Part shown: in pieces, positions 1-39,813 of the stretch
How positions within the stretch are numbered: position 1 is the first letter of the stretch
Layout: each line of letters opens with the position of its first letter
From: Chrysochromulina tobinii
Taxonomy: Eukaryota
NCBI GenBank assembly: GCA_001275005.1
Contig: JWZX01002937.1
Coordinates: forward strand, 1-40,955
Length of the DNA stretch: 40,955 nucleotides
Reading direction: 5' to 3'
Program-made: the position numbers and the translations under genes
The notes under the pieces: model-generated
What the model saw: the letters and a program-made list of their open reading frames with translations, nothing else
Told to the model about the DNA's origin: nothing
Database searches by the model: none

Positions 1-1
1 A

Positions 2-853
2 TTCACCATCGCAATTTCGAGAGGAGGGAGCCAGGGCGGGGGTGAGGCAGAAGCACATACTGTGTCCGCGCGGGCATCGGATGCGCGAGCGCGAGGTTCC
101 CACAGAGTTGTCTGTACCCACACAATCGAGGCAGATGTCGAGGTCGCATCCGTGGCCTTCGCACATCCAGCGAGTGGTTCCCGGCCGGATTCTCGATCCG
201 CACGGCCCATTGCAGAGAGGCTGGAATCCGCCGCGGCCGCCGCGGACGGGGGCGGGCACAAGGAAGTGACCACGAGTGCATCTAAACCTGGGAGGTTGGA
301 GTGCCCTTGAAGCGGTGGCTTCGGGCGGGGGTGGTTCGAAAGAGCTAGACTGGTTGCACTGCCTGGCTGCGTCCATCGCACCGACAGTGTAAGCCACCGT
401 TGAGCGTTGGGTCCGGGTGACCGCAGCGGACTGGAGGCGGGCTGCTTCCGTGAGTTCCGCCTCTGCCGCGCGGGCTACGCGAGCTTGCTCCCGCCGAGCA
501 GCGTGAGCGGCCGCCCTTGTCGCCTTAGCGGCTTGTCGACGCAGGCGAGCGTCGAGTGCGGCTTGCCTCCGAGCGTCTATGCGCGCCTGCTTCCGACGAG
601 CGACGGTGGGGTCAAACCCAGCATTCCGCAGCCATACGAGCCTGCGTTGATGCTTGGCAGCGCAGGAAAAGGCCCATGTGATATCCAAGTTGGGGTTCGC
701 TCGCGCATTACGCGCAAGTGTGTAAAATGCCGTGAAGACACTGAGCGCAGAGTCCCAGTTGTCGTAAGCCCACTCCCCCGCCTCGCGCCCTCCTTCCCTG
801 TCTGGCTCTGTGAAGGGCTTTCGCGCCCTGTCCAGCACCGCTATGCCCATCAT
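2..853 (-). CDS. LINE ORF2 C-terminal segment, open to the window edge and absent from the ORF track: Arg/Ala-rich helix then tandem ZZ/C1-like zinc fingers
   Basis: Manual translation finds no stop from ~1110 to position 2 in this frame (first ATG at 853). It encodes ...RRKQARIDARRQAALDARLRRQAAKA...CTRGHFL-x-CNGPCGSRIRPGTTRWMCEGHGCDLDICLDC (122-280), and a second unit CPRGHSM...NCDGE starts at 76. Confidence 0.75.
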   Translation of the reverse strand, partial: MMGIAVLDRARKPFTEPDREGGREAGEWAYDNWDSALSVFTAFYTLARNARANPNLDITWAFSCAAKHQRRLVWLRNAGFDPTVARRKQARIDARRQAALDARLRRQAAKATRAAAHAARREQARVARAAEAELTEAARLQSAAVTRTQRSTVAYTVGAMDAARQCNQSSSFEPPPPEATASRALQPPRFRCTRGHFLVPAPVRGGRGGFQPLCNGPCGSRIRPGTTRWMCEGHGCDLDICLDCVGTDNSVGTSRSRIRCPRGHSMCFCLTPALAPSSRNCDGE

Positions 854-3200
854 GGTGGCCCAAGGTCGAAGCGCCCTGAAGCAGCGGCGAACGAGGCACG
901 GCACCGTCCCACACCTCCCGAAGGCCTCTCGAAGCCATCCACTTGGCTCTGGGGGCAGGCCTGTCAATGATGACAACGCAATCGCGGTATGAGACGGCGG
1001 TGGTCCGAACCGCGTTGACCTTTGTCGGCGGGCCCATGCGGGCCGTGCACGCCGCCTTCCGCCCCTCTCCAATGATGGCGACGATCCACTTGAGAAAGCC
1101 CCTTCCATAACCTAGCGCGAGGGTCCTCGCCGCTTCGGGTGATTCGACGACGAGCTGTGATCTCGGCGCGTCCGGTAACCCAAGCATGAATCGAAGGGCG
1201 GCGTGTCGCTCACGAGGGCCGAGGCGGTCGGCACCGCCTGAGAGGGCTGTCAAGGCGTAATGGGCCTGTTGAGTGCCAAAATCGCTGAGTCGGTGTGCCA
1301 GCCACCCCATGGCTCGTGATCGGTATAGCGCCGAGTCACCGACGCAGCAAGTCGTGATGGTGTGCCATCTCGACTGCGGCGCTCGAGCAGGGATCGGCCG
1401 CCACAAGCCGGCCACTGTAACGCCCTGAGCAAGAAAGCAACCTGTACAGGGGCAGGGGGCGTGCGTCTGGCACCACCATTCCCAGCCTCCCTTTTGAGGT
1501 CGATACTCTCGGAGGCGGTCGAGCTGGGCCTCCCCCGGAAGGACTCGGTCGAGGAGCCCTGCACCGAGGCGGTCGGCGAGAAGCCCACAGCGGTCGGCAC
1601 GTGCGTCGAGGATGCAATCAAATGTAGCCTCTGTGAGCAGCCTGGCTTTGACTGGGGAGCAGCGGAGGAGCTGCCATGTATCGCTAGACTCGAGAAGGGT
1701 GAATGAGGTAGTGCCCACCAGCTGGGCCATCATGAAGGCGTGGCAAAAATCATAAGCGGCGCGGCCAGCGCCCCTCTTGACACCGGCAATGCGACACTTG
1801 GCGTGAGCCGAAGGCATAAGGTCCATTGGCAGAATTGGGGAGTCGAGCATGAATTTGGCGGTAGCGTCAGCAGCCTCGTTCGGAGTAATGCCGTCGTGGC
1901 TGTGGACGTGGACGTAAAGGATGGCCCGATGGCGTTGCTCGAGCTCAGAAATGTTGCCAAGTTCCTTGTCCCGGTAGCGCGCGGTCTTCGCGGAGACCGT
2001 GCGCCCCGGGAAAGCATGCCCTGCTTGCATACCGCTCAAGCAGTCGGTGACCACCACCGAGACAGAATTCACCGTAGCGGCGAGGTGGTCCTGAAAGGCG
2101 GCGAGTTCGGCTTCGTAGGAATGGCGCTCAAAGGTATCTGCGTAGATGTCCAGTTGGCCCCCGAGCACCGAGCAGCCAAGAGCCTCCGAAGCGACGGCCA
2201 GGCACACCCTGCTGATGCGAGTGGCACCAGTTTCCTCGTGGATGTCCTTGGAGCCGTCGGTAGCGACGAAGTGTGAGACAGGGTATTCAGACTCAAGCTC
2301 AAGGAGCTTGTCGAATACAAAACGGCATTCCGTTATCTTGACCGTTTTGCGTGCCTTGTCACTCACAATCTGACATTCCCACCAAAAGCGGGCGGCGAGC
2401 GGGCAATCAGGGTGGGCGGGGTTGCCACGGAGTCTTCCCGCGTCGTCAAAGCGATATGCGAGTCTTACGCGGGCAAGCCATTCCTGCCCACGCCCATTCC
2501 ACCGTACGTGGAAGCCGCCCTGGATACGTTGGTGCCATACTCGGTCGGCGGGCGAGAGTTTAGAATCATAGAAGAAAATTGCTCGGCGAGTAGCCCCGTC
2601 TAAGTCCAGTTGAGATGGCCCCGTGGTGCCGGGGGGGTCAAAAAGCGGTGGGTTTGAGTCGCCCAGGAGGGCCGTGAACGCTTCCTTGAGTGAACGAAGG
2701 CGCCCACTATCCGTTGCCGTGACGCCCGGTGTGAAGACCGCCGTGGGGCAGTGAGGGATGTGAGGAGGGGGTGTCGCAGGGTGAACCCGATCCAAGGGGA
2801 GAGACCCCGTCGGCGAGCTCTTGACAACCACAGATTGCCGATATCCAAGCGCTGCGGAGCAAAACTCAGTGAGTAGCTGAGCGACGGTCTGGGGAGCCAT
2901 GTCATGAGGGATGCGCATTCGAACGCCGTCATGTTGGAGATTGATGACCTCGGCCTGCCACCTCCTGGCCCACTCACATTTAGCCCGACGCGACGCACCC
3001 TCGTAATCCTGAAGGACGTAGGACTTGGCTGTGAGTTCGCTGTCGCGATCCCCATCACGCATAAGAGAATTGATGAGCTCGACGTACTGAACGAGGTGGG
3101 GCCGAGAGCTCACGAGCCACCGAGCACGAGCTTCCTGTTCCCGTGCGAACCGGGCGAGGTTGAAGGTGACGGACAGCGGGGGTGGCGAACGGTGACCCCC
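708..3200 (-). CDS. LINE ORF2 segment with RNase H (about 1850-2275) and C-terminal Cys/His motif (about 1345-1455)
   Basis: HFVATDGSK...YEAELAAF...VVTDCLS...HVHSHDGITPNEAADATAK gives the full RNase H D-E-D-H-D set. CPCTGC...WHTITTC resembles the LINE C-terminal zinc motif. The frame is open upstream of the GTG at 3113 as far as a TGA at ~3243. Confidence 0.85.
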   Translation of the reverse strand, partial: GGHRSPPPLSVTFNLARFAREQEARARWLVSSRPHLVQYVELINSLMRDGDRDSELTAKSYVLQDYEGASRRAKCEWARRWQAEVINLQHDGVRMRIPHDMAPQTVAQLLTEFCSAALGYRQSVVVKSSPTGSLPLDRVHPATPPPHIPHCPTAVFTPGVTATDSGRLRSLKEAFTALLGDSNPPLFDPPGTTGPSQLDLDGATRRAIFFYDSKLSPADRVWHQRIQGGFHVRWNGRGQEWLARVRLAYRFDDAGRLRGNPAHPDCPLAARFWWECQIVSDKARKTVKITECRFVFDKLLELESEYPVSHFVATDGSKDIHEETGATRISRVCLAVASEALGCSVLGGQLDIYADTFERHSYEAELAAFQDHLAATVNSVSVVVTDCLSGMQAGHAFPGRTVSAKTARYRDKELGNISELEQRHRAILYVHVHSHDGITPNEAADATAKFMLDSPILPMDLMPSAHAKCRIAGVKRGAGRAAYDFCHAFMMAQLVGTTSFTLLESSDTWQLLRCSPVKARLLTEATFDCILDARADRCGLLADRLGAGLLDRVLPGEAQLDRLREYRPQKGGWEWWCQTHAPCPCTGCFLAQGVTVAGLWRPIPARAPQSRWHTITTCCVGDSALYRSRAMGWLAHRLSDFGTQQAHYALTALSGGADRLGPRERHAALRFMLGLPDAPRSQLVVESPEAARTLALGYGRGFLKWIVAIIGEGRKAACTARMGPPTKVNAVRTTAVSYRDCVVIIDRPAPRAKWMASRGLREVWDGAVPRSPLLQGASTLGHHDGHSGAGQGAKALHRARQGRRARGGGVGLRQLGLCAQCLHGILHTCA

Positions 3201-5080
3201 CGTTCCAGTCGGGCCTGTGCAATCTCGAGCCGAGCTTTGGCTTCACAGAAAGCCCGGTGGATATCGGTGTCGGTAGGAGGAGCGCGAGCGCTGAGTCCTA
3301 CAAGCAGAACTCCAAATGCATCCGTGCAACGGGCGATGCGACAAGCTTCGTCCGTGAGCAGGGGCGGCCTGAGTTGTTCACGTGAAAGAAGCGCAGGAGA
3401 CAGACAAGAAGCGGGGTAGTCGACTGCAAGCATGGGTTCGCGCTGCCATGAAGCTGCAATCGGCCGTGGCATGGCAGAATTCATCGCGTTGGCGGCAAGG
3501 GGCTGGGGTGAGGCTGAGGGTGAATCCGGGGTCCCCACGTCTCGCTGGTGAAGGGGGCTGCTGACGGCGCTGGAAGTTGTTCCATCTCGAACATCGCTGA
3601 GAACATCACCCTCGTGTAACCAGTGAAGCATCCGAAGGGCGGCGCCTCTAGACTGGTCGCGGTCGAGAAGCTCGCGTAGCGTGTCGGTGAGGCGCTGACA
3701 CGCCTCGTCGTCGACGCGCAAAAATTCACGGCGTTCGGATAGCGTGGCAAACCTGTCATCGGCGGACTGATTGGGGGCGATCCGTGGGTCACTCTCGTCG
3801 TCCCCGTCGTCATCGTCGTGATGCAGGGTCCGCCGGGAGTCTTCTGGTCGCGCCGTGAGCCATTGAAGCCAGTCGACTCCTTGAGCGCGCATGATGCGTA
3901 ACACGGTGAGCGCGTCGACTGAGGGGATGAGTTCCGAGTCGCCGATGAACAGTTGAGCGAGGGCTCGGGCGTGAAGACAGCCACTCCAAAAATTGCTCGG
4001 ATTGGTTCTGTAGGAATCTGAGTGGATAATGCCGAGGAGAACGGGTACGAGCTCATAAAAGGACCGAAGAACGCTCTCGAGACCATAACTCCACAAGACA
4101 CGGGCAACGGCGTGGTGGGCACGGTCGGCGGCGGGGGTGCAAACGGGTGAAGCCAGCGCATTAACAAGCGTCATAAGGCTGGCCGCCATCATAGCGGGCC
4201 AGACGTGCACGTTGCCGTAACCTGAAATGTGAGCCGCCGGTCCGGCAGCAGCAACGAACAGCTGAGACAGGTCGTCATTGACGGACGTGGAAATGCCCCG
4301 AGGGGAAGCATGCAGTTGGACTCGAGGTGAGGAGTACGAGCGCCGAAAGCCTTTAACTCCCTTCTGTTGCAGGACGCGCCGGCACGCCGGTCCGAGCGTC
4401 CCCTCGACGGCCTCGAAGGAGCCACCAAAGCAGGCGCCGTAAAAGAAGGCGTTGCCGTTAATGCTGAGCCCAGCGCAGCCGAGCGCGAGCCTCCTGCTCA
4501 TCGACGAGGTGGCAGCCTGGGCGCCACACGCTGTTATTTTGGAGCGGAGAGTAGAGAGTCCAACCTCGTTGTGGCGGCCGTCCATTCGAGTAGCCATGCC
4601 GCAGTACAAGTAGTGTTCGGAGACGAGGAGGTTGGGGATACGCCGCGGGAGATCGCCGTCGACGAGCGCAGCGATGTAAAATTTCTTGCGGGTCTCGATG
4701 GGGATGAGCGTGCCGTCGCGACCGCGCTTGTATTCGAGAGATTGGACCACCGTTTTGTTGTTGCCCTTGATGTTGAGCTGACAGTCCGTGATGCGACTCC
4801 AGATAGACCAAAACAACGTGATCCTGTCGAGGAAGAAGGCCTCACCAGCCGCGTTGGCGGCGTCGTCGACGAAGACGAGAGATCCCATTTCGCCACCTGC
4901 CCCGTCAGGAGCAAACGCCGTGTAGCCGCTGATCTTGAGCTCGAGTGCTTGCGCTATCGTATCCATCATGATTTTGCAGGCTTCAGGTGAACCTTGCGCG
5001 CCTTGAAGGAAGCCTCGAAGGATTGGAAACGGGTCGGTGGCCCCAAAGGCCGTCTCGTACCGTCCTTGAGCGACTCCGTG
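3110..5080 (-). CDS. LINE ORF2 segment: second half of the reverse transcriptase plus downstream region
   Basis: Same frame as 5081..8404 after one TAG: ENW*HGVAQGRYETAFGATDPFPILRGFLQGAQGSPEACKIMMD...GSLVFVDDAAN. FVDD is at about 4862-4873. Confidence 0.88.
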   Translation of the reverse strand, partial: HGVAQGRYETAFGATDPFPILRGFLQGAQGSPEACKIMMDTIAQALELKISGYTAFAPDGAGGEMGSLVFVDDAANAAGEAFFLDRITLFWSIWSRITDCQLNIKGNNKTVVQSLEYKRGRDGTLIPIETRKKFYIAALVDGDLPRRIPNLLVSEHYLYCGMATRMDGRHNEVGLSTLRSKITACGAQAATSSMSRRLALGCAGLSINGNAFFYGACFGGSFEAVEGTLGPACRRVLQQKGVKGFRRSYSSPRVQLHASPRGISTSVNDDLSQLFVAAAGPAAHISGYGNVHVWPAMMAASLMTLVNALASPVCTPAADRAHHAVARVLWSYGLESVLRSFYELVPVLLGIIHSDSYRTNPSNFWSGCLHARALAQLFIGDSELIPSVDALTVLRIMRAQGVDWLQWLTARPEDSRRTLHHDDDDGDDESDPRIAPNQSADDRFATLSERREFLRVDDEACQRLTDTLRELLDRDQSRGAALRMLHWLHEGDVLSDVRDGTTSSAVSSPLHQRDVGTPDSPSASPQPLAANAMNSAMPRPIAASWQREPMLAVDYPASCLSPALLSREQLRPPLLTDEACRIARCTDAFGVLLVGLSARAPPTDTDIHRAFCEAKARLEIAQARLERGVTVRHPRCPSPSTSPGSHGNRKLVLGGS

Positions 5081-8000
5081 CTACCAATTTTCAACGAGTC
5101 CGCGCAGTGCTTGAAGCCCCTGCTCGGGGAGCCCATAATGACGCATAGCTTGTGCTCCCGCCGAGCGAGAAAAGGACATGAAGCACTTGGTGAGGTCAAC
5201 GTAAAGGACGTACAAGGCTTTGCGACGATAAAGAGCGTCGTCGATGCAGAGGTGCAGGGCAAAAGCCTGCTCTGTGCAGCCCCTGCCCTTGCAGCCGCCC
5301 GCATGGTTCGCAAGAACTCTAGCGCCAACCGGCGTGAGAGCCGTGTGCAAGAGGCACCGTTCGGCGAGTTTGGCGCCATGGTTGATGAGCCAAATGTCGC
5401 GGAGTTGCTCCATGCGCAAAAGTCCGGACGCCTTTTTGGGAATGAGAACAGCCATGATTTGGAGGTAGTGCGCCGGGTAGACGCCTTCCTCCATGCAACG
5501 TAGCAAGAGCTCGAAGTAAGCGAGTTCTGCAGGGTGCCCCTCTGGTAGACATTGGAGCATCTCAATGATGAACGGGTTGAAGGCCCGCGCTTTGCCCTTA
5601 CGTTGTTTACGGGCCTCCCGGCGAAGTACGTCGACCGGAAGGGCGTCGCGAAGGGTCCAGGGGGCCCCACCCGGTAACGTCAAAGTCGGGGAAAGAGGCA
5701 CAAGCATTTGTAGCCAAGTACCGAAGGCTTCGTCATCCGAGGCGCTAAGGCGGTTTTGATTGACGCCGTATCTGTGAGCGAGAGTGTGAACTGCTGAAGC
5801 GCTTCTCTGAATCTCGCCGTCGTCGTCAATGAGCGCCGCGAGCTGGAACCTGTTGGCTTTCTTGCGCTGCTTGATGGCTCGGAGCCGCTCATGCATGCGC
5901 TCAGCGAATTCCTGTGCCGAGCATGGTTCGCCGACCCCGAGGTTGATAGCGTTGTTCAAATGACGACGCCGCGCCTCGACCTCGGGTTGTAATAGAGCAA
6001 TGGCGTCGCGGAGCCGCTTGGCGCATGCGTTGCGAAGATCCTTCCAAGAGAGCGCGCGCCCGGTCGCGGCAGCGCGCCGGATCTCGCGGTCGCGAACACG
6101 TCGGAGGATGACGGCCTTGTAGAGGCGGTCATTGTTGTCGGCAAGGAAGAAAGCTGAAGCACGGGTGTCGTGGTTGGCACTCCACTCGAAGGAAGCACTG
6201 ACGGCCGAGTAAAGGCCTCGCAACCACTGGAGGCGGGTCTCGGGTTCGTTGGGCGGTGCGGCTCGCGGTGCACGAGTGGCCCATTCGTCTGCACCCATAG
6301 CTGTGCTGGCGCTGCGGACGAGGTGTGCTTCTAAGGCGGCGAGGGCGATATCGGCCGTTGCCCCGCGTGGGGCCGTATAAAGCGCAGCGAGGCGGCCATA
6401 AGCGGGCCAGGCGCTTGGGGATTTGCTGATACGGTACGTACTGGCTCGTCCTTCGCCAAGCTTCTCGAGGGTACCCTCGTCGCGAAAAGAGAGACTGACA
6501 CGGTGATCAAAGGCATCGCCATCGCTGCCCCATTCGCCAAGAAAAATGCCACCCTTCTCGGAGGCCCTCCAAAAGGGGAAGGATTCACAATCCACAAAGA
6601 CGAAATCAAGATCTCGGTCGTGGAGGTGCCCCGTGGAGGCTCGAAAAGTAAATTCCCCCTGCTTGAGTCGTGAAGGGATAGCTGCACTGAAAGAGTCGCC
6701 GTCGGCTCCGCCAAACCATCGCCGATAAAGAGCCTCGTCATGGGCCTCGTTAGGTGAGCCATTGCGTCGCGAGGTAGGGGAGGGTGATGCGTTCCAATCT
6801 CCGGCGACTGCAAAAGGTAACGTAATAGCGCCCGAGATAGTGTCCATCGTGAGCGTCATCACTTTGTCCGCCACGAGCTCAATGAATGCCGCGCGCGTGG
6901 CTTGACTGGCGGCGGCAGGAACGTAGACACACGCGAAGAAGAGATCCTCATTCGCGAGGGGCCCGCGCGTTCGAGTGAGGCGAATGCCGAAAGCTCGTCT
7001 GCCTGCGTAAAGTTGTAACAGGTTAGCGACGGCGGGTGTGAGCCGCCCGTCGGCCTGTGCTGCCTCAATGTCGCCGGAGTGGAGGAGAGCGATGGCCGTG
7101 CTGTCTCGGTCTTCACTCTGTGCCGTGTGCGCCTTGCGGAACTGGTTGCGGTGCCACGCAAGCAGAACCCCGCCGCGACGGTGAGCATCTTTGCGAGAGC
7201 TGGTTTCTTCGCCGGCACGCGCCATGACATCGTAGCCGAGTCGGAGTAGTTCGGTTGCAAGGCGGTCGACGCTGGCCTGTCCACCTCCTAATTCCTGCAG
7301 CGCGACCAAAGCCGGTCGGTGCCAAAGTTGAATCGTGGAGAGTAGCGACCGGGTTCGGCAATCAAGGTGGTCAAGACCAGCGGCTTGTCTTTCGGAGATG
7401 GCCGATCCCTTCATGTTGAGAGAAAGGAGCGTGAAGCCGTTCTCGTTGGCAACCGGGAGCTGAGGGTCAAGTCGCAATGGCTGGGGCTCGTCTATTTCGT
7501 CACCGCCACCGCGTAACCGTAGAGTTCGTTGGTTGTTCCTCGGCACATGCCGCGCTGTCGACTCGATCACGCCTGAACCGTCGCGATGACAGCACGAGCG
7601 GGCAGGTAGCAACCCTACTCTTACGAGTAAGGAGGGAGAGGAAGACCTTCCGATGGGGAGTCCCAAGGGCTCGCGTAAGGCCCGTAGCGTTCGTAAGAGA
7701 ATACGTAGCCTGACGCCAGAGTGACGGTGGTGATGACGCGGTGATGACCGGGGCTCGGCGGGAATGCGGCGGCGAGTGGCAGGGCGGGCGGCACTGGCGC
7801 CAAAGGGGACACAACCGGTGTCACCTGCGCGCGTTTGAGCGTTCCTGAGCGCAGTCGCATGGAGGGCTGACCAGGTGCGAGAGCCGGCTGAGGCGGCGCG
7901 TCGCGTGAAGACATTGAAGTCGAGGGAGAGCGGATCGCCACGTAGTCCGCCACCATGAAGAGACAGCCAGATTGCAAACTTCCTCGATGCCATCACGGCG

Positions 8001-8404
8001 CCTTGCCGGCACGGCGCGAGAATGGCGAAGGAGAGCGGGGTCGCGAGCCACGAACAGAGCCCGGCCAAAGGAAAAGCGGCGCTTCGGCGGGTGGCCCCGT
8101 AGCGCAAGAGGGCCGTCAGGGCCCTCTCGAGTAAGCGACGCCGTCGTGGGCAGTGGACGTTCGCGAATCGGCGACCGCGAAAACCGTGCCAGATAGCGGC
8201 GCGAGTCCATGTGAGAGATAAGTGAGGGGCATGGCCCCACCGGACTCCGACTCTATGCGACCGCGTGCCCTGTTGCCCGTACTGTCCGAAGACGTGGTGA
8301 CGCGAAGTCCCCTCGTCGCCCCCGGCCGGGGCCGACAGCTGAATACCCACACACGCGTACGGGGGAGAGACCGTGTGACCGGTTTCCTGCGGAGGACTAG
8401 ACAT
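5081..8404 (-). CDS. LINE ORF2 N-terminal segment: Arg-rich leader, LRLRGG, APE endonuclease (about 6490-7435), first half of RT; ends at a premature TAG
   Basis: First ATG at 8404 lies just upstream of the ORF1 stop (ATGTCTAG). APE and RT motifs as listed for the element. Confidence 0.88.
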   Translation of the reverse strand: MSSPPQETGHTVSPPYACVGIQLSAPAGGDEGTSRHHVFGQYGQQGTRSHRVGVRWGHAPHLSLTWTRAAIWHGFRGRRFANVHCPRRRRLLERALTALLRYGATRRSAAFPLAGLCSWLATPLSFAILAPCRQGAVMASRKFAIWLSLHGGGLRGDPLSLDFNVFTRRAASAGSRTWSALHATALRNAQTRAGDTGCVPFGASAARPATRRRIPAEPRSSPRHHHRHSGVRLRILLRTLRALREPLGLPIGRSSSPSLLVRVGLLPARSCCHRDGSGVIESTARHVPRNNQRTLRLRGGGDEIDEPQPLRLDPQLPVANENGFTLLSLNMKGSAISERQAAGLDHLDCRTRSLLSTIQLWHRPALVALQELGGGQASVDRLATELLRLGYDVMARAGEETSSRKDAHRRGGVLLAWHRNQFRKAHTAQSEDRDSTAIALLHSGDIEAAQADGRLTPAVANLLQLYAGRRAFGIRLTRTRGPLANEDLFFACVYVPAAASQATRAAFIELVADKVMTLTMDTISGAITLPFAVAGDWNASPSPTSRRNGSPNEAHDEALYRRWFGGADGDSFSAAIPSRLKQGEFTFRASTGHLHDRDLDFVFVDCESFPFWRASEKGGIFLGEWGSDGDAFDHRVSLSFRDEGTLEKLGEGRASTYRISKSPSAWPAYGRLAALYTAPRGATADIALAALEAHLVRSASTAMGADEWATRAPRAAPPNEPETRLQWLRGLYSAVSASFEWSANHDTRASAFFLADNNDRLYKAVILRRVRDREIRRAAATGRALSWKDLRNACAKRLRDAIALLQPEVEARRRHLNNAINLGVGEPCSAQEFAERMHERLRAIKQRKKANRFQLAALIDDDGEIQRSASAVHTLAHRYGVNQNRLSASDDEAFGTWLQMLVPLSPTLTLPGGAPWTLRDALPVDVLRREARKQRKGKARAFNPFIIEMLQCLPEGHPAELAYFELLLRCMEEGVYPAHYLQIMAVLIPKKASGLLRMEQLRDIWLINHGAKLAERCLLHTALTPVGARVLANHAGGCKGRGCTEQAFALHLCIDDALYRRKALYVLYVDLTKCFMSFSRSAGAQAMRHYGLPEQGLQALRGLVENW

Positions 8405-10445
8405 GTCCACGCAGCCCCCATCGCGGGAAGACTCCCCATTCCGTCGCCCTTGCTGTGAGGCTGCGAGGGGCACTCGTGTCCCGTAGCCGCAGCCCTATCG
8501 GCGGCGGAGGTGCCGGAGCCAGTTCCGTAGCCGAGGCAGGGGTCGAGCCGGGTGCCGGGGCGGGCGCCGGGGCTGGTGCCGGAGCGGGTGCTGGGGCCGG
8601 AGCGGGCGCCAGGGCTGGTGCCGGGGCGGGTGCTGGGGCCAGAGCGGGTGCCTGAGCGAGCGCCGTGGCAGGTGCCGGAGCGGGTGCAGGGGCAGGTGCC
8701 GGGGCGGGCGCCGTGCCGGGCTGTGCAGAGACGCGGCGGCGGCGGGTGTCCTGGCTCTCCTCGGCGGCGGGGGGGCCCTCTGCGACAATGGCGAGTAGCT
8801 CGGCCGCGCGCGGGATGATGGTGCCCGGTGCAGCGCGGACACATTCGGGTTCTTCGCCAAGCTCGGCGTCAGAAGTTGGAACGGGGGTCTTCATGATCAT
8901 GTGCCCGATCAACTTCTGCAGCTCGTCCAGAGACGAGGCCACCTTGTAGGGGGTGCCGACGTGCGATGGCGCATACGTGATGGATGTCTTCCCGGGCTTG
9001 GTCGTGGAGAGTAGAATTCCGCGCGACATGAGTGCGTTGACTTGAGCGACGGTGGCCGCGTCGTCGGCCGTCTCAACGCGCATGATCACCACGTTTTTGG
9101 AGACCAAATCGGGGGCCTTGAAAAAGGTGACCTGAGACGCCTTGAGCCGGAGGAGGCCGGCGAGACCCGGCTTGATGCGCAGGTTCGCGTCCGTAACGCT
9201 CATGGCGCCCGAGAGGAAGAAGATGTTCACTCCCTGGACTGGGTCGTGACGGAAGGTCTCAAACTGGGCATCGCCAAGAAGGGTGACACTGTTGGCCAGG
9301 CACCAATCCAGATGCGGCTTGCTCACGCAGGTGCACATGTACACATATTGCCCCTTGAAGGCGCGAGGGTCGGTGATGAAGTACGCGGACGAAACCAGGT
9401 GCTGGTGCCAGAGCTCGAAAATAACCTCGGACTGCATGACGTGGAGGCGACCACGGGTCTTGTCTACTGCGATGGCGAAGCGGAGTGCGTCGGCAGGCTC
9501 ATCACGTGGGAGACCAGGGCAGAAGAAGTGGCCAAAAAGTCCTTTGCGAAAGGCTTCCGCGAGCTGGTCGACGTACTCGGGGAAGACGGCAATCGAATAC
9601 AAGCCCGAGATCTGGTTGTCGTCAATGACAATATCGAAGCTGCGATGGCCGTTCTCGTAAACGTCCTCGAAAGTGACGGGCTTGGGCGCACCCTCCTTGG
9701 TCAGAAACGTGTAGTCAATCTTGAGGAGCAGGTCAGCCAGTGCATCCCGCTTCTTGAGCGCAGCAGCAGTTTTGATACCCATGGGCATCATGAAGGGGTT
9801 ATCGACGTGCTTCGCCTCGCGGTTGGTGACTGGGCAGATGAACATGAGGGTGGGGACCTTGACATCCTCGTGCAGCGGATCGATAGATTTGTGAGTGTCC
9901 ATAGTGAGCCTAGAGATGTCGCGCTCGACCACGCCCGGCTCGAAAGTTTGATTGGCGGGCATGCCTGGCAGGCGTTCTCGGACAGTAGTGGCCACGTTGC
10001 GCTTGTCTTGGAGGACGCGAGCAAGGCGACCGAGCGCCGGCGTGAGGTCGGACGCGATCGTCGGTCCGAGTGGGTTCGATGCGGGCTGTGGCGGGGGTAG
10101 GTTGTGTTTGCGAGCGCCACCGTTGTTGACGCCGAGCAAAGTCGTGTTGCCCGGGGCAGTGGGCTGAATGGCAGGAGCAGCGGCCACGGATGGTGGCGTG
10201 TCGCCCGTAACGAGAGTAGAGCTCGTCGGCGGATTGGTAGCAAGGGTGGCCGGAGGCCTCGGTGCCAGTGGTGCTCCAGGATGGGCACGGGTTGCATCTC
10301 TTGCGCCGCCCGAGGCGGTGGTTTCATTTACGGCATCGGCGCGCGCTGCGCGTTTGGCCTTGGCCGGTCGAGTGGGGGCTTGCGCCGTCGTCGTAATGTC
10401 CATTGACACCACGCGGTCGCGCGTATCCGTGTGGGAAGGGTCCAT
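8397..10445 (-). CDS. LINE ORF1 (gag-like position; about 682 aa from first ATG) with a C-terminal Pro-Ala tract
   Basis: Long uninterrupted ORF directly upstream of, and overlapping, ORF2 on the same strand. No recognisable CCHC knuckle; the call rests on position. Confidence 0.75.
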   Translation of the reverse strand: MDPSHTDTRDRVVSMDITTTAQAPTRPAKAKRAARADAVNETTASGGARDATRAHPGAPLAPRPPATLATNPPTSSTLVTGDTPPSVAAAPAIQPTAPGNTTLLGVNNGGARKHNLPPPQPASNPLGPTIASDLTPALGRLARVLQDKRNVATTVRERLPGMPANQTFEPGVVERDISRLTMDTHKSIDPLHEDVKVPTLMFICPVTNREAKHVDNPFMMPMGIKTAAALKKRDALADLLLKIDYTFLTKEGAPKPVTFEDVYENGHRSFDIVIDDNQISGLYSIAVFPEYVDQLAEAFRKGLFGHFFCPGLPRDEPADALRFAIAVDKTRGRLHVMQSEVIFELWHQHLVSSAYFITDPRAFKGQYVYMCTCVSKPHLDWCLANSVTLLGDAQFETFRHDPVQGVNIFFLSGAMSVTDANLRIKPGLAGLLRLKASQVTFFKAPDLVSKNVVIMRVETADDAATVAQVNALMSRGILLSTTKPGKTSITYAPSHVGTPYKVASSLDELQKLIGHMIMKTPVPTSDAELGEEPECVRAAPGTIIPRAAELLAIVAEGPPAAEESQDTRRRRVSAQPGTAPAPAPAPAPAPAPATALAQAPALAPAPAPAPALAPAPAPAPAPAPAPAPAPAPGSTPASATELAPAPPPPIGLRLRDTSAPRSLTARATEWGVFPRWGLRGHV
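8545..8715 (-). repeat. Degenerate 6-bp repeat encoding a (PA)n linker in ORF1
   Basis: Translation PAPAPAPAPAPAPATALAQAPALAPAPAPAPALAPAPAPAPAPAPAPAPAPAP. Confidence 0.9.
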
Positions 10446-10761
10446 CGTTCGGCGCGGGCTCACGCTGCGTGGCTCCGGCGACCGCCGTCGCGCGCAAGGA
10501 GGCTCGCACTGAAAACTCGCGCCGAAAAAAAGGATCGGCCCGTCAACTGGATGGCGTTCGCGAATCAAGCGTGTGCTAGGTATGAGCGTCCGTTCAGCAA
10601 CCTTTTTCTACGGGGTTTCCAACTCTGACGTCGCATATGACAGTTTACGATACTTATCGAGTTATCGACTTCGGTCGTATGAACGTATCGTCTCCTCTCT
10701 CTTCGCTTTCTGGACACTGCCGCGCTCCACCTCACCTTCCGCTCGCACAAGGCGCGCGTCC

Positions 10762-11523
10762 TCACAACGCCGTTCCGCGCTCGAGGTTGGCGCGAATCTC
10801 GGACGTGTACCCGTCGAACGCGCGCCCAATCTTCTTATTAAACACCTCATTGCGCCGGTTGATGTATGTAACGTCCGCGTCCTCGTTGAAGGTGCGCCGG
10901 CGTGACCAGTTGGAGCGGCGCACGGCCGCGTCGTGCATGTCCTCGACGAGTGCCTGCACGCGCTCCTTGGAGACCGGCGGCGCCTGCCCATACGCGAGCG
11001 GGTCTGCATCGCCCTCGTCGACCACCTCATCACCCGTCGCCGCTCGGCCGGCCTCGGCCACGCGATTGGTCTGCTTCTTGTAGTGCCGGTACTGCGCCTC
11101 GTTATTGTACACATCCCACCCGTACTCGGCCCGACGCTTGCCCTTCTTCTCGGCCTTGTACAACCGTTCTGCCGCCGCCTCGGCCGTGATCTCCAAGTGC
11201 TGCTCCACCTCGGTGGCCTCGCCGCCGCCGCTCTCGGCCCGCGCCTTCTGCTTCGCCTCGTACGCGCGCTGGATGCGCTCCTCCTTGAGGCCGGCCTCAC
11301 CAAGCTTGGTGCGCCGGTCCTCAGCCACGACCGCCTTGTGGTTCTGCTGCCGCGCTGCACCAAGCTTTGACTTGAGCTGTGCCAGCCGCTGTGCAGCTGC
11401 GCTCTGCGGGAGCGATGACTGAAGGGCCGAGTCGCTCGATGAGGCCGCCGGTAGAGATGTGCCCAGGATGGCAGGCAGTGGTACTGCGTGGTAGCTCACC
11501 GCATGGCCGTCAATCTCGTCCAT
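10762..11523 (-). CDS. SYF2: Pre-mRNA splicing factor SYF2
   Basis: NHKAVVAEDRR, GWDVYNNEAQYRHYKK, SRRRTFNEDADVTYINRRNEVFNKKIGRAF and the C-terminal NLERGTAL match the SYF2 family. ATG at 11523. Confidence 0.92.
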   Translation of the reverse strand: MDEIDGHAVSYHAVPLPAILGTSLPAASSSDSALQSSLPQSAAAQRLAQLKSKLGAARQQNHKAVVAEDRRTKLGEAGLKEERIQRAYEAKQKARAESGGGEATEVEQHLEITAEAAAERLYKAEKKGKRRAEYGWDVYNNEAQYRHYKKQTNRVAEAGRAATGDEVVDEGDADPLAYGQAPPVSKERVQALVEDMHDAAVRRSNWSRRRTFNEDADVTYINRRNEVFNKKIGRAFDGYTSEIRANLERGTAL

Positions 11524-11720
11524 GGTTTGGCGGGGCAGAAAAAGGCGGACGCCCAAAGGTCACGCGAGTTGTCACGCCCAGGGGGTCGCACCAGACACAC
11601 GCGTTTCACATCAAACTGAGTGTTGTTTGGGGATAGGCCGCTTAGAGCCAAGCGGTTCTGTATTAAATACAATTGTACATCGCAAACGCAACTCGTATTC
11701 CAAAATTTGGGTCGAGACCG

Positions 11721-11820
11721 ATGGCGTACGCCTGTGACCATCTCAGGGCTGCGACAAGCGCTTCTCGCGGTCGGACACCCTCACGAATCACAAGCGCATG
11801 CACACAGGCGAGCGGCCGTG
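11721..11820 (+). pseudogene. Orphan frameshifted C2H2 finger copy
   Basis: tacgcctgtgaccatctcagggctgcgacaagcgcttctcgcggtcggacaccctcacgaatcacaagcgcatgcacacaggcgagcggccg is nearly identical to the fingers at 11996-12439 but has a net +2 nt change after YACDH. Confidence 0.75.
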
Positions 11821-11968
11821 CTCATGCGCTCCTCAATGTTAACTGAGTCGACAGGCAACGAGGAATAGGAACGAACTTGTCGAGAAAGTTTCGGTAATTG
11901 ACACCAAATGTGGCGCGGTGTCGCAAACGGACGAATTTAGAAGGTGCGATTAACGTGCACGATTAACG

Positions 11969-13147
11969 ATGGCGCTGTGCACGGGCGAGCGGCCGTACGC
12001 CTGCGAGCACGAGGGCTGCGGCAAGCGCTTCTCGCGGTCGGACACCCTCACGAATCACAAGCGCACACACACTGGCGACCAGCCGTACGCCTGCGACCAC
12101 GAGGGCTGCGACAAGCGCTTCACGTGGTCGGACACCCTCACGAATCACAAGCGCACACACACGGGCGACCAGCCGCCGTACGCCTGCGAGCACGAGGGCT
12201 GCGGCAAGCGCTTCTCAGAGTCGAGCAACCTCACGGTGCACAAGCGCACACACACGGGCGAACGGCCGTTCGCCTGCGAGCACGAGGGCTGCAGCAAGCG
12301 CTTCTCAGTGTTGGACACCCTCACAAAGCACATGCGCACGCACACGGGCGACCAGCCGTACGCCTGCGAGCACGAGGGCTGCGGCAAGTGCTTCTCGCGG
12401 TCGAGCAACCTCAAGTCGCATATGCGCACAAGCTCGCATATGCGCACAAGCTCGCATGGCCAGTGCAGCCACAATGCGCCGGAGCACCTGTGTGACGACC
12501 TCGAGTGCGTCCAGCGCCGGGACATGCGCCGTCAGGTCGCTGTGGACTTTGGCCTGCAAGCGACCCGCTCGCCAGCAGCGCGCCCAGCGCCTGCCATGCT
12601 CCCATCAACGCCGCAGCGCTCGGGTGGCAGCAGCCGCAAGCGCCCACAGGAGGCCGAGGACTGGTACGAGGACGAGGAGGGCATGCAGCTCGCTGTGGCC
12701 CTGTCGGCCTCCGTCACACAGGCGGGCCTTCCCGATGAAAGGCGACAGTGGCTGGAAGGCCGGCCGGCTCACATGCAAGGCGCTTCTTCCAGCTTCGACA
12801 TGGAGCATGCTGGCAACAACGACCAGTTGGATGAGGTGGAGGTGGAAGTGGAAGTGGAATCGGAGGAGGTGGGTCCTTGCTTCGGCTGCTGCCTGGGCGG
12901 GGAAGTGACCTTGATCGGCACGGCGCGCGATCGACCAGACCCGTCCGAACCCGACGGCGGGTGGGGATACACCCCATGCTGCGGACAGACGGCACACTTT
13001 GACTGCCTCGGGCGCTGGCTCACCCCGGACGATCCTGACCATGGCAGGCTGGTGGAGTCGACGAACGGGCTGGTGGCCATCGAGCTCAAGTGCCCATTTT
13101 GCAAGAAGGCGCTCTCCCGCTCGCGCACGCGCATGCTGATGATCTAA
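11969..13147 (+). CDS. C2H2 zinc finger protein (5 fingers) with a UIM-like motif and a C-terminal RING-type domain
   Basis: Five YACxHEGCxKRF...HxRTH units with TGE/DQPY linkers. EDEEGMQLAVALSAS (12668-12712) is UIM-like. CFGC...TPCCGQTAHFDCLGRWL...KCPFC (12878-13103) is RING-like. Confidence 0.85.
   Translation: MALCTGERPYACEHEGCGKRFSRSDTLTNHKRTHTGDQPYACDHEGCDKRFTWSDTLTNHKRTHTGDQPPYACEHEGCGKRFSESSNLTVHKRTHTGERPFACEHEGCSKRFSVLDTLTKHMRTHTGDQPYACEHEGCGKCFSRSSNLKSHMRTSSHMRTSSHGQCSHNAPEHLCDDLECVQRRDMRRQVAVDFGLQATRSPAARPAPAMLPSTPQRSGGSSRKRPQEAEDWYEDEEGMQLAVALSASVTQAGLPDERRQWLEGRPAHMQGASSSFDMEHAGNNDQLDEVEVEVEVESEEVGPCFGCCLGGEVTLIGTARDRPDPSEPDGGWGYTPCCGQTAHFDCLGRWLTPDDPDHGRLVESTNGLVAIELKCPFCKKALSRSRTRMLMI
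11996..12439 (+). repeat. 84-87 bp minisatellite-like zinc finger array with a terminal 18-bp duplication
   Basis: The finger-coding units are near-identical; tcgcatatgcgcacaagc is duplicated at the end of finger 5. Confidence 0.9.
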
Positions 13148-28209: not shown

Positions 28210-31200
28210 ATGCCTGACGAGAAGAAGGTCAAGAAGAAAGGCGGTATCGTCCCTGGCGCGTACGTTTGGGTCAAGGATACGGCGATCGCTGGCAGCGACC
28301 TCTTCACCAAGGGCCATGTGCTTACGATCGACGAGAAAGGCAAGGCAACCGTCGAGACGACCAATGGCGTGAAGACGCAGGAGCTCGTTCTGCCGCTCTC
28401 CGACTGCCACCCGCTGTGCCCTGGTGACGATGTGCCCGACCACTGCCAGCTCATGTTCCTGAGCCAGCCCACACTTCTCGAGAACACAAAGGTACGCTAC
28501 ATGGCCGATAAGATCTACACCTACGTAGGCGAGATTCTCGTGGCCGTCAACCCTTTCCGCTTCATTGAAGGGATCTACGATGTCGACAAGATGGCCATGT
28601 GCAAAGGCAAGAAGCTTTGGAACACGCCGCCGCACGTCTTCGCCATGTCTGAAAAGGTACGCCCTCGAGGGTCGGCGGTGCATCAGGCGGCGAGCTGCAG
28701 TTGCTACTGCTGAGAACTGACGCTGATCGCCAACCACCGCTGCGCCGCTCGCCTGTGATCTCAGGCGTATGTGGCCATGAAGAAAACCAGACTCAACCAA
28801 TGCATCGTCGTCTCGGGCGAGTCGGGCGCGGGCAAGACGGAGACGAACCGGCAACTCATGAACTATCTCGTGTGGCGCGGCACTGACGCTCATTCTGAGA
28901 ACACCCTCACCGAGAAGATTCTGGACACGAACCCGATCCTCGAGGCGTTTGGGAACGCCAAGACGACGCGCAATAACAACTCGTCGCGCTTCGGTCGGTA
29001 TGTGCTCGTTCGCTTCTCCGAACAGAATGAGGTTGTGGGCGCGCAGGTGCGCACTTTTCTGCTCGAGCGCTCGCGCGTCACCTCCACCTCCAAGGCCAAC
29101 GAGCGCTCGTACCACATCCTGTACATGCTGGTGGCGGGCAAGACGCCGCACGCGCCCGAGGCCGTCGATAAGTACCGGTACCTCTCAATGTCGGGCTGCA
29201 CCACCGTGCCGACCTGGGATGACATCAAGGAATACCACACCGTCAAGAAGTCGCTGCTCTCGGTGGGTCTCGCGGATGACCGCGGATGACCACTGATGAC
29301 CGCTGATGACCGCTGATGACCGCTGATGACCGCTGATGACCACTGATGACCACTGATTGCGCCCGTCATCAGGTTGGTCTCGCGCCTGCGGAGCTTGAGG
29401 ACTGCTGGGCCTACATCGCGGCGATGCTCTACCTGGGCAACATCGAGTTTGGCACAGGCAGCGACAAGGCCGTCATCACGGCGCTCGGCGCCAACGACCC
29501 CGTACGCCGTGCCGAGGTTCTCCTCGGTGTGGAAGACATGTCGGTGCTGCTCTGCCAGCGCCAGATTACCGTCAACGGCGAGATCACGTACGCTCAGCAG
29601 ACGCCGGCGAGCGCGAGGACGGCACGCGACGCATTGGTCAAGATCATGTACTCGCGCCTCTTCGACTACCTAGTCCTGCGCGTCAACCAGACGGTCGATG
29701 ACGCGCAGCGCGCCAAAATGTACGCTGGTGGCCTCTGCTGGCCAGTGATGGCCCTCTCATGACCACAGATGGCCATCTGATGGTCACTGATGACCGCTGA
29801 TGAGCGCTGATGAGCTCTGATTGCGCCCGTCCTCAGGTACATCGGGCTGCTCGACGTGTACGGCTTCGAGTTCTTCGAGGTCAACTCCTTCGAGCAGCTG
29901 TGCATCAACTTTGCGAACGAGAAGCTCCAAAACTTTTTCCTGAAGACAGTTTTCGATTCCGAGGAGAAGGTGTACAAGGAGGAGGGCGTGCCCTGGGTGC
30001 CGATCACGTACGCCGACAACAAGGACGTGATCGACCTGTGCGAGAACAGCATGAACGGCATCTACAAGCTGCTCGATTCCGAGTGCCGCACACCTAACGC
30101 CTCTGGCAAGTCCTTCTGCGCCGCTCTTCACACGGCGTATGGGCAGAAGCACACCGTCTTCGGCGCGCCCAAGCTCTCCAAAAAGGAGCAGCGGACGGCT
30201 GATGAGTACTTTCTGGTACGCCACTTTGCGGGCGAAGTCATCTACTTTGCGGACGAGTTCCTCGGCAAGAATAACGACTCGCTCGCGGCCGAGGTCGAGG
30301 GACATCTGCTCAAGTCGAAGAAGGCGATCGTGCCCGAGATTTCGAAGCCCCCCGAAGCTCCGGCGCCCGCGGCCAACGCCAAGGGCGCCAAAAAGGGAGG
30401 GCAGGCCTCCTTCTCCTCTGTGGGCGACAAGTTCGTCAAGTCGCTGCGCGCGCTGCTCGAGGAGCTTGAGTCGTCGCAGGCCCACTTTGTGCGCTGCATC
30501 AAATCGAATCCGGAGCTCAAGCCGCGGGTACGTTTCGTAGGCCTCGAATCGCCTCTCATTGCCTCTGATTGGCACTGAGGGCCTCTGAGGGCCACTGAGG
30601 GCCACTGAGGGCCCCTGGCGACACCCTTGATTGCCTCCCTCATCAGGTGCTCCATGGCGAGTCGGTGATGAACCAGCTCAAGCTGAGCGGCACGCTCGAC
30701 GCGGTGCGGCTGATCCAGGCGGGCTTCCCGACGCGCATTCCGTACGAGATGCTCTACACACGGTACAGTGGCGTCCTGCGCGACGTGCCCGGCATCAACA
30801 TCAGCGCTCTCACCCCGTCCGAGTTCTGCGAGGCGATCTCGGAGGCGTGCGGCGTGAGCAAGAGCGAGTACGCTCTCGGCGTGAACCGCATGTTCTTCAA
30901 GATGGGCTCCGCCTCGTTCCTCGAGGAGCTCGCCGATGCGGACCCCGAGGAGATGAAGCCCAAGCTGATGGAGATGTTCGCCCTCTTCGAGGCCAAACGC
31001 GCGGCCAAGCCCGTGTTTGAGAAGACGGTGCTCATGTGGCTGTACAAGCGCCGCTATGAGCAGATGGTGGCGGAGAGGCGAGAGAGAGAGCGAGAGGATC
31101 TCAAGAAGGCGGAGGATCGGTTTCGGAAGGCGGAGGAGGAGCGCAAGCGGCGCGAGGAGGCGGAGAAGCGCCGTCGCGAGGAGGAGGAGCGACGAAAGGC

Positions 31201-33529
31201 GGAGGAGGAGCGCCGACGGCGCGAAGAGGAGGAGAAGAGCCTCAAAGCGGAGCGCGACGCCCAGGAGGCGGCTGAGAAGATGGCGATGAAGAAGGCGGCC
31301 GAGGCTGAGGCGGAGGCGATCAAGCAGGCCGAGTTGGCCGCCCGGAACTCAGGCGAGGGCGCGGCGGCGGTGCAGAAGGCGAAGGAGAAGGCGGCCCAGC
31401 AGGCCAAGAAGGATGCGGCGGAGGAGGCGGTCAAGTTCAAAAAGGAGGCGTCGACCGTCATCGAGGACGCCAAGGCAAAGAAGAAGGCCGAGGCCGAGGA
31501 GGCCGCCAAGACGCTCTCCGACGTCGAGTCGATGATCAATGCGCTCGAGAACGACGCCGACCTCGAGCAGGCCGTCGAGGCAGCAGGTGGCGTCAAGAGC
31601 CTCATCGACATGGCCGCGAAGCACTCGGACTCGGCGCTCGTGCAGGCACAGTTTGCGGGCGTGCTGCGCGACTTGTGCATCTCGGACGACATTGCAATCG
31701 AGATTGCAAACGCGGGCGGTACCGATGCTCTGATCGAGGCGGCGCGCATACACTACGACTCGATCGAGGTGCAGGCCGCTGTCGCGGGCGCGATGCGGAA
31801 TCTGTCGGAGCTCGACCAGATCGCCGTCGACATTGCGACCGCCGGCGGTATCGAGGTGCTCATCGACGCGTGCGCGCGACACCCTGACTCGGCCGTCGTG
31901 GCGGCGCGCGTCGCGGGCGCGCTGTGGGGCCTGTCTGTGCACGACGACATTGCGGAATTGATCGGCGAGATGGGCGGGACCGACTCACTCATCCTGGCGG
32001 CGAAGAACCACCCGATGAACGAGGAGGTGCAGGCGGCGACCGCGGGCGCGATGCGAAATCTGTCGGTCTCGGACGAGAACAAGCACTCGATCGCGGACAT
32101 GGACGGGCTCGAAGTGCTCATCGCCGCCTCCGAGAACCACCTGCAAAATGCCCTCGTGCAGGCGCAGGTGGCGGGCGCGCTGCGCAACCTGTCGCTCAAC
32201 GATGAGGTGGCTGAGCAGATCGCAGTCTCGGGAGGCATCGAGGCGCTCGTCTCGGCCTCCTCGACCCACGCCGACAACTCGAAGGTGCAGGCGGGTGTCG
32301 CGGGCGCGCTGCGCAACCTGTCGGTCAACGACGAGATCGCGGAGGAGATTGCGCACGCGGGCGGCATCGACGCGCTCATCCTCGCGTCTGAGAATCACCC
32401 GACGAATGCCGACGTGCAGGCCGAGGTGGCGGGGGCGCTGTGGGGGCTGAGCGTGAACGACGAGATCGAGGAAGCCATCGCCGCAGCCAATGGGATCGCG
32501 GTGCTCGTGATGGCGGCGAAGAATCACTTCAGCAACGCCAAGGTGCAGGCGCGCGTCGCCGGCGCGCTGCGCAAGCTGAGCGCGAACGACGAGAACAAGC
32601 ACGAGATCGCGAGCTCGGGCGGGATCGAGATGCTCGTCAAAAGCTCCGAGATCCACCTCAACAACGCGGTCGTGCAGGCGGGCGTCGCGGGCGCGCTCTC
32701 CAACCTGTCCGTCGACGACGAGATTGAGCAGATGATCGCGCAGCACGGCGGCATTGAGGTCCTCATCAATGCGGCCAAGGCGCACATCGACAATGTCAAG
32801 GTGCAGGCGCGCGTCGTGCGCGCGCTCACCAACCTGTCCGTGCACGAGGAGAACAAGGCTCGCATCGCATCGACTTTGGGCATCGCCACCCTGATCGAGT
32901 CGTCCTTCCAACATCTGGAGTCGGCCGAGGTGCAGGCGGGCGTCGCGGGCGCGCTGCGCAACCTCTCCGTCTCGCCGAGCATCGCGCAGCTCATCGTCGA
33001 GAAGAATGCGATCCAGTCGCTCGTGCAGGCGGCGCAGGCGCACTCGACCAATGCGATCGTGCAGGCGGGCGTCGCGGGCGCGCTGCGCAACCTCTCTGTC
33101 AACGAGTCCAACCGCAAGCAGATCATCGCGTGCGGAGGCATCGCGGCGCTCGATATGGCGGCCACGTTGCATGCAGAGAATGAGAAGCTCCAAATCGAGG
33201 TCGCCGGAGCTCGGCGCAATCTCCTGGGCGACTCGCCCGCGAAACGGCCCGGCGCCATCGACACGGCGGCGGCCAATGCCAATGGGACTGGCGGCGCGGA
33301 TGCGGGCGCGAAAAACACGCCGCGCGGGCGCAGCTTCTCGCCGTTCCGCAGACCGTCGTTTGGGCGAAAGGCGTCCCGTACCGGTACGGATGCCGCCGAC
33401 CCTGCCGCGCAGTCGACTGAGGCGGTGCAGGACGGCTCAGGGACGGATCGCGGTTCAAGTTTAAAACGGCTCTTTGGCGGCCTCTCAGGAAGGAACAAGT
33501 CGCCCGCGCGCCCTGCTCGAAAGGAATAG
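28210..33529 (+). CDS. Unconventional myosin with ER/K helix and 13 ARM repeats; exons 28210-28656, 28765-29262, 29373-29719, 29837-30527, 30647-33529 (about 1,621 aa)
   Basis: P-loop GESGAGKT, switch I NNNSSRFG, switch II LLDVYGFE, NSFEQLCINFANEKLQ and HFVRCIKSN. Four GT-AG introns restore a single frame. The tail has 43-aa repeats GGxxxLxxAxxxH...VQAxVAGALRNLS. Confidence 0.93.
29263..29372 (+). repeat. Myosin intron 2 filled with 10-bp (ctgatgaccR) repeats
   Basis: About 8 tandem units. Related units occur in intron 3 (29720-29836), and ctgagggcca units occur in intron 4 (30528-30646). Confidence 0.9.
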
Positions 33530-39214: not shown

Positions 39215-39813
39215 TCGCCCAGGAGCACGCGCCGTCGTACCAGCAGCAGCACAACCCGACAGGCTCCCAAGCGCTGCACCCTTGCCCTGCTGCTGTGCTT
39301 CAGACACGGGATCCTCCTCTTGCCAGAGAAGGGGCGCGGCGGGCGCGGCGGGCGCGGCGGGCGCAGCGCGCCCGCGGCGCGGCGGGGAGGATGGTGGAAC
39401 GGGCGGAGCGGCTGCGTTGGGCAAGGCGGGCTAGACTCAACGGAAATCGATGCGGGACAAACTGTGAACTCTCGCCCGGTGTGAGCAAAGAATGCGGGAG
39501 TAGTTTGAGCTAGTGCGGCATTTCTGATGGCGGACGGACGGATCAAGGTCGCTTGCGTTGAAACGCGAAACGGCACAAAGGTGCGTGAGTACGAAGTTCG
39601 GCATTGTTTCGTAAAGGAAATTAAATGAAGAACTCAAAAGTCATCTCAATGTCTCCTGGGGAAGTACATGTAACATCAGACCGAATGAAGATGTTTCCTG
39701 TCGCACCGTTGGCTGAGTTCGCAGGATATGGAAGGAATGCATGCATGCATTCGCTGCGGCAGAATTTCAACAGTTCTTTCACCTGAGGGTGCTGTGAGCG
39801 TTCCTCGCATCAG

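Follow-up and report, generated by a model that had tools for sequence, protein, structure and literature searches.

A conserved ubiquitin-tail motif ahead of the endonuclease domain of an algal LINE ORF2 as a candidate processing site

ORF2 of an algal LINE carries, in frame and just ahead of its APE domain, the six residues LRLRGG that form the C-terminus of ubiquitin, and these residues recur in related elements whose leaders have diverged. We are inclined, by a little, to regard LRLRGG as a conserved ubiquitin-tail copy at the leader/APE junction, where a host deubiquitinase-type protease would cut after Gly-Gly and so free the APE-RT-RNase H protein.

The element was found in the window, i.e. 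the whole stretch of 40,955 nt of the Chrysochromulina tobinii contig JWZX01002937.1 that was analysed. It is a non-LTR retrotransposon with two ORFs on the minus strand and the domain order APE, RT and RNase H in ORF2, the position of the APE N-terminal to the RT being the defining character of APE-type non-LTR retrotransposons. Its features are as follows:

10448..10526, minus strand: 5' UTR hairpin region just 5' of the ORF1 AUG (inverted repeat I1)
8397..10442, minus strand: ORF1, encoding 681 aa with Ala-Pro repeats in the tail; a weak lead suggests an RRM type
8397..8404, minus strand: overlap of ORF2 start and ORF1 stop, AUG-UC-UAG, a candidate termination-reinitiation junction (from sequence)
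7523..8404, minus strand: Arg-rich, mostly unconserved leader of ORF2, reaching the motif after 294 codons (from composition and lack of a Pfam match)
8114..8245, minus strand: leader block common to P0014, in frame (30/44 residues identical)
7505..7522, minus strand: LRLRGG, the ubiquitin C-terminus, with the predicted cut after the second Gly (from sequence and conservation)
7436..7504, minus strand: 23-residue linker beginning Gly-Asp, the predicted new N-terminus (from sequence)
6590..7435, minus strand: APE endonuclease domain (Pfam PF03372)
4400..5800, minus strand: RT region (approximate), with the stop at 5081-5083 inside (PDB match and RVT_1 of relatives)
1854..2258, minus strand: RNase H domain, its frame reached after the frameshift near 3240 (PF00075, E 0.0019, below the curated cut-off)
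1..1500, minus strand: Cys/His-rich C-terminal part of ORF2 (from sequence)

The APE was matched by PF03372 (Exo_endo_phos) at residues 359-635 with an E value of 1.6e-5, above the curated cut-off. The RT region gave weak R2/L1 ORF2 matches, with an R2 protein as the best PDB sequence match (E 0.009), and RVT_1 was matched in close relatives of the element, of which the named ones are Chrysochromulina parva gene models. The copy itself is broken by a stop within the RT (5081-5083) and by two frameshifts, near 3240 and near 900. The relative P0007 reads through the position of the RT stop, and the metagenome locus L002 reads through the frameshift near 900 owing to a one-base difference at 901. 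A metagenome scan had yielded 92 pattern matches, two of which were confirmed (L001 and L002); since both represent the same insertion as the window, they add nothing independent, and both also stop short of the 3' end of the element, which lies beyond base 1 of the window. Relatives were not found in the viral contigs and genome contigs searched, and Rfam gave 0 matches on positions 1-11000 (E<=1).

LRLRGG occupies positions 7505-7522 of the minus strand, corresponding to residues 325-330 of the frame 8494-5081 (P0001), and the first APE strand, FTLLSLNMKG, begins after 23 residues C-terminal to it, which places the motif just before the APE of ORF2 as the earlier note had stated. It is the single occurrence in the six frames of the window; by chance, 0.067 occurrences would be expected in such a window and about 4e-5 at a distance of 50 residues or less from an APE. 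As the hexamer was picked after the fact, it is conservation that carries the weight, not these figures.

Conservation was assessed among 22 representative clade proteins, including that of the window, with a recognisable first APE strand. Four of these (P0005, P0060, P0173 and P0174) start too close to the APE and were dropped, leaving 18 informative proteins, the leaders being visible only where gene callers had retained them. Exact LRLRGG-G is found in 4/18 (P0001, P0014, P0016 and P0048) and IRLRGA-G in one (P0164); a different motif, L[R/H]GN, is carried by 11 of the 18, and two have neither (P0029 and P0007, the latter being a spliced gene model in which internal gaps are apparent). Identity is 66-69% for P0001, P0014 and P0016 and 29% for P0048, and the exact motif is, on the sequences compared, present in only two independent lineages. 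One of the search queries contained the motif; P0016 and P0164, however, came from a profile that lacked the motif and had been built without either protein, and the best match of P0048 in the query search was on the RT side. The chance of the exact recurrence in P0048 is about 1e-4 within 60 residues.

Averaged over five cross-subfamily pairs, identity rises from 0.11 across the 30 residues preceding the motif to 0.80 within it, falls to 0.34 over the following 10 residues and is 0.67 from there into the APE. The proposal that the motif is conserved just before the APE while the leader diverges was thus borne out at the sequence level. The residue at +1 after the motif is Gly in all five motif-bearing proteins. 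In P0164, P0181 and P0182, IRLRGA-G has Ala where the scissile Gly is expected, so that Ala would stand at P1 of the predicted cut; this copy may be decayed, as it carries a duplication and a frame change.

The match to ubiquitin is confined to the tail. When the 100 residues up to and including GG were searched against PDB with phmmer, no match fell below E 0.07, and a beta-grasp domain of around 76 residues ahead of GG had no significant match in PDB or Pfam; an AlphaFold model of leader plus APE, at a pLDDT of 31, was uninformative. The absence of an evident ubiquitin fold upstream, already remarked on in the earlier note, was thus found again, and further ubiquitin residues ahead of LRLRGG are absent in 5/5 motif-bearing proteins. 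The near-motif GLRLRD, which had been pointed out at the end of ORF1, is indeed present there; it is not kept in the one paralog covering that site, whose loose end at 8482 reads differently (by hand translation of the frame), and was rejected as a second site. Also rejected was an additional xRRGG site nearer the N-terminus, which P0029, P0177 and P0194 have and most of the 18 leaders lack.

At the DNA level, LRLRGG is intact in a 90%-identical paralog, where the codon of the second Gly and the two codons after it differ synonymously; of the 16 changed codons listed, 11 are synonymous. The similarity of this paralog ends at 7541, six codons upstream of the motif, and it has its own Met four codons past GG, which could start the APE without the motif. 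The contigs that show it come from three runs, possibly of the source culture, have 22 differences in 212 nt and match P0005. In a 151-nt fragment of a marine RNA library, none of the differences listed falls in the motif. Contigs from RNA libraries span the motif colinearly and intron-free (X14 at 7449-7737 and X15 at 7428-7576); given a depth of 4-9 and the possible presence of DNA, these are not counted as expression.

The leader comprises 300 aa from the first AUG, with 15% Arg and a single Lys, and has no Pfam match at E<=1, in keeping with the earlier description of an Arg-rich leader of about 300 aa without recognisable domain. Its codon signal is weak and, with one Lys in 300, it looks barely protein-like. 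The comparison of its first part with a paralog gave 12 replacement and 3 synonymous codons. A block of 44 residues is 68% identical to P0014, in frame, and run X13 has a DNA match at 8139-8192 within it. The third-frame ORF 8868-8116 was rejected as the true coding frame of this block, with no Pfam match and no synonymous excess, as was a transmembrane segment in the leader, the best 19-residue hydropathy of 1.6 being unconvincing. Folding of 8100-8500 gave a z of -0.86, and the lowest z among 120-nt windows was -2.6, in 1/30; this region thus shows no unusual RNA structure, leaving a ribozyme or IRES there unsupported.

The first in-frame AUG of ORF2 (8404) overlaps the ORF1 stop as AUG-UC-UAG, i.e. 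8404-8397 shows the overlapping or closely spaced start and stop of termination-reinitiation. In excerpts of PMC2699510, the junction of RHDV is given as AUGucUGA, with the same spacing as in our element, and SART1 is described as using UAAUG. In a paralog covering the ORF1/ORF2 junction, both spacer letters are changed and AUG and UAG are unchanged among the 21 of 33 differences listed, which makes their preservation likely, not certain. The DNA around the junction, at 8331-8482 and 8253-8284, is common to a paralog. Only two in-frame Met residues, 31 and 168, precede the conserved APE Asn and both lie upstream of the motif; therefore, any AUG-started product with an intact APE includes LRLRGG. 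We infer that ORF2 is translated from the AUG that overlaps the ORF1 stop.

In the sequence of events that we envisage, ORF2 translation would begin at this AUG, a host DUB-type enzyme would cleave the precursor after the Gly-Gly of LRLRGG, and APE-RT-RNase H would be released from the leader of about 300 residues with Gly-Asp at its N-terminus. The freed leader would end in diGly, and a C-terminal diGly is a known degron. That cleavage occurs and that the enzyme is the host's we infer from sequence. Scans against Pfam at E<=0.01 to 1 revealed no protease domain, either in the parts of the element covered or in relatives that carry the motif, and this, together with the lack of a ubiquitin fold, favours a host DUB-type enzyme.

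In ubiquitin-ribosomal protein fusions, other fusion precursors of ubiquitin or ubiquitin-like proteins and the ubiquitin insertions of pestiviruses, a C-terminal LRLRGG is in frame with the next protein, as it is in our element, and the cut is expected after Gly-Gly. However, such fusions carry the whole ubiquitin fold, whereas our element matches in six residues only, with an unconserved upstream part. Linear diGly sites without ubiquitin fold are also known, i.e. the LxGG sites of coronavirus PLpro and the internal Gly-Gly of USP1 autocleavage, which are likewise ubiquitin-tail-like motifs inside a polypeptide and are cut by a DUB-type protease; there, however, the protease is part of the same polypeptide, and none was detected in our element. 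Fusions of ubiquitin are described for algae in excerpts of PMC6332867. According to excerpts of PMC7477763, LRGG tetrapeptides are very poorly hydrolysed by DUBs, as these enzymes need an exosite on the ubiquitin surface. Slow cleavage may suffice, or a less fold-dependent enzyme may act. The missing ubiquitin body, the IRLRGA variant, the motif-less P0029 and P0007, the barely protein-like leader, the paralog Met after GG and the limitation of the exact motif to two lineages count against this reading.

Alternatively, the cut after Gly-Gly might be the work of a DUB-type protease from a retroelement, whether a domain of this family that escaped recognition or the OTU/Josephin domain of a different element working in trans, much as LxGG sites in viral polyproteins are cleaved by the papain-like proteases encoded there; we consider this unlikely. 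A dedicated protease would have no need of the ubiquitin body. Josephin and OTU domains are known in ORF2 proteins of non-LTR elements, as described in excerpts of 10.64898/2026.06.17.732966 and PMC8557442, and these Dualen/RandI and Josephin/OTU elements resemble ours: they occur in algae, combine APE, RT and RNase H in a long ORF and are connected to the ubiquitin system ahead of the APE. In the outgroup protein P0128, an OTU domain was weakly matched before the APE (E 0.005, below the cut-off). However, those elements encode a DUB domain, whereas ours carries a substrate motif, and no protease family was matched in the scanned element parts or motif-bearing relatives, with the 3' end outside the window. 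Nor does our element have the single ORF with Josephin and restriction-like endonuclease of Dualen/RandI, as it has two ORFs and no Josephin, OTU or RLE Pfam match in the scanned parts.

It is equally improbable, in our estimation, that the motif stays uncut and serves as a docking or decoy site for a ubiquitin-system protein, or as an RGG site for Arg methylation or RNA binding. This would account for conservation at the protein level without efficient catalysis on a bare tail and would tolerate the IRLRGA variant, but a binding motif need not occupy a fixed domain boundary that holds other junction motifs or 2A-like sequences in relatives, and a lone RGG leaves the Leu-Arg-Leu part unexplained.

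We would likewise give low odds to a hexamer without function, whether it matches ubiquitin by chance, survives from a ubiquitin fusion since lost, or belongs to an untranslated spacer ahead of a downstream ORF2p start. In excerpts of PMC6332867, algal fusion genes hold degenerate ubiquitin-tail remnants of around 10 residues; furthermore, our leader resembles translated GC-rich non-coding DNA, and the paralog Met after GG would permit a downstream start. On the other hand, identity jumps at the motif, the paralog change within it is synonymous, P0048 has it again without deviation, and none of the five proteins has additional ubiquitin residues before it. The leader frame is also open beyond chance, over 291 codons from the ORF1 stop to the motif, as compared with 30/20000 shuffles.

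Least probable of all is a translational signal, i.e. ribosome skipping or recoding as in 2A, with the ubiquitin match being incidental. The D(V/I)ExNPGP core is absent, the part upstream of LRLRGG is unconserved whereas 2A needs its upstream context (excerpts of PMC3708506), and agreement with ubiquitin at six of six positions, in two lineages, would have to be coincidence. In favour of such a signal, the position is that of 2A in other LINEs, and a basic, Trp-containing stretch of about 25 residues before the sister motif could act in the ribosome tunnel.

Cleavage by a host DUB-type enzyme would give LRLRGG a role parallel to that of the 2A peptides found at the same position in other LINEs. 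Excerpts of PMC3708506 describe 2A-like peptides in the APE-type non-LTR elements Ingi, L1Tc, Rex1, Crack, L2 and CR1, where, as in our element, a short signal lies in the N-terminal part of ORF2, sometimes directly before the APE, and is proposed to split off APE-RT. Two of the 11 outgroup proteins checked also have a 2A-like NPGP at the motif position, and none has LRLRGG. Unlike these 2A peptides, our motif has neither NPGP nor a conserved upstream context, and as LRLRGG copies a protease substrate, the separation would be post-translational and dependent on a host enzyme. The outgroup proteins with GPAGANPGP before the APE are P0128 and P0068, provisionally labelled RTE-like.

Ahead of the sister motif L[R/H]GN, some 25 residues form a conserved basic stretch with Trp, and the motif is a candidate for an undescribed cleavage or skipping signal. 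It is followed by Thr or Gly and lies 8-15 residues before the APE, and the sequence further upstream diverges; the stretch was seen in P0165-P0169, P0176-P0179, P0194, P0041 and P0099. Among the L[R/H]GN relatives is a family with a single 3359-aa ORF1-ORF2 fusion, in which ORF1-like sequence is joined to the APE. Nothing relevant on strings of the L[R/H]GN type was present among the literature matches listed. The leaders of P0176, P0178, P0179 and P0194 contain a hydrophobic, signal-peptide-like stretch and then a small Cys-rich segment, 150-250 residues before the APE; P0194 also has a chromodomain-like C-terminus (by eye; no Pfam match), and the leader of P0029 contains a GNAT acetyltransferase domain at residues 336-441.

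In trees without labelled references, the clade of the window element forms a well-supported group apart from the RTE-like matches. P0048 is placed next to the L[R/H]GN families, in the main branch that does not hold the window element, and a single group of LRLRGG elements was rejected with a p-AU of 0.0004, obtained from a quick tree of 18 rows; in further trees, long branches make some placements unsure. Given this separation of P0048 from the window element, the motif was either kept or regained across a deep split. P0041 and P0099, which carry LHGN, fall on the window element's side of the tree; each motif type is thus represented on either side of the split, so that one of them, if not both, was replaced or regained. 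Considering that LRLRGG, L[R/H]GN and 2A-like NPGP are found at one position, this position behaves as a swappable junction. It is tempting to speculate, at somewhat less than an even chance, that this algal LINE clade has a toolbox of interchangeable processing signals before the APE, i.e. a bare ubiquitin tail cut by host deubiquitinases and a basic helix ending in L[R/H]GN as an undescribed cleavage or skipping signal.

For LINE ORF2 proteins outside animals, whose production and maturation are largely uncharted, LRLRGG offers a precise candidate processing site, with L[R/H]GN as a second candidate signal. If our reading is correct, host deubiquitinases would join 2A skipping and self-encoded proteases as routes by which retroelement polyproteins are split, and the maturation of a retrotransposition enzyme would be under the control of the host ubiquitin system, giving the host a handle on transposition. 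It would also imply a protease that cuts a six-residue ubiquitin tail without the ubiquitin fold, with a possible use as a compact co-expression tag for algae. No report of an LRLRGG or LRGG junction motif in transposons was present among the literature matches listed, whose coverage lacks Repbase and most subscription journals.

Regarding the remainder of the element, ORF1 has no Pfam match at E<=1 and its AlphaFold model reached a pLDDT of 31; its Atlas structure neighbours are mostly RRM proteins, every one with a TM below 0.5, and the ESM Atlas gave leads under 0.9 only. The hairpin region at 10448-10528 is common to several contigs from the same runs with unalignable flanks, a possible promoter or RNA element; two contigs of run X13 align solely at 10448-10528 and 10466-10528. 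Directly upstream of the element lies a SYF2 splicing-factor gene (10762-11559, minus strand), then a C2H2 zinc-finger array (11725-12430, plus strand). The window further contains an ARM-repeat/myosin-like gene at 30599-33529 and two paralogous Sel1-repeat/U-box genes, at 34321-35911 and 36605-39563, that are 89% identical across 1.6 kb.
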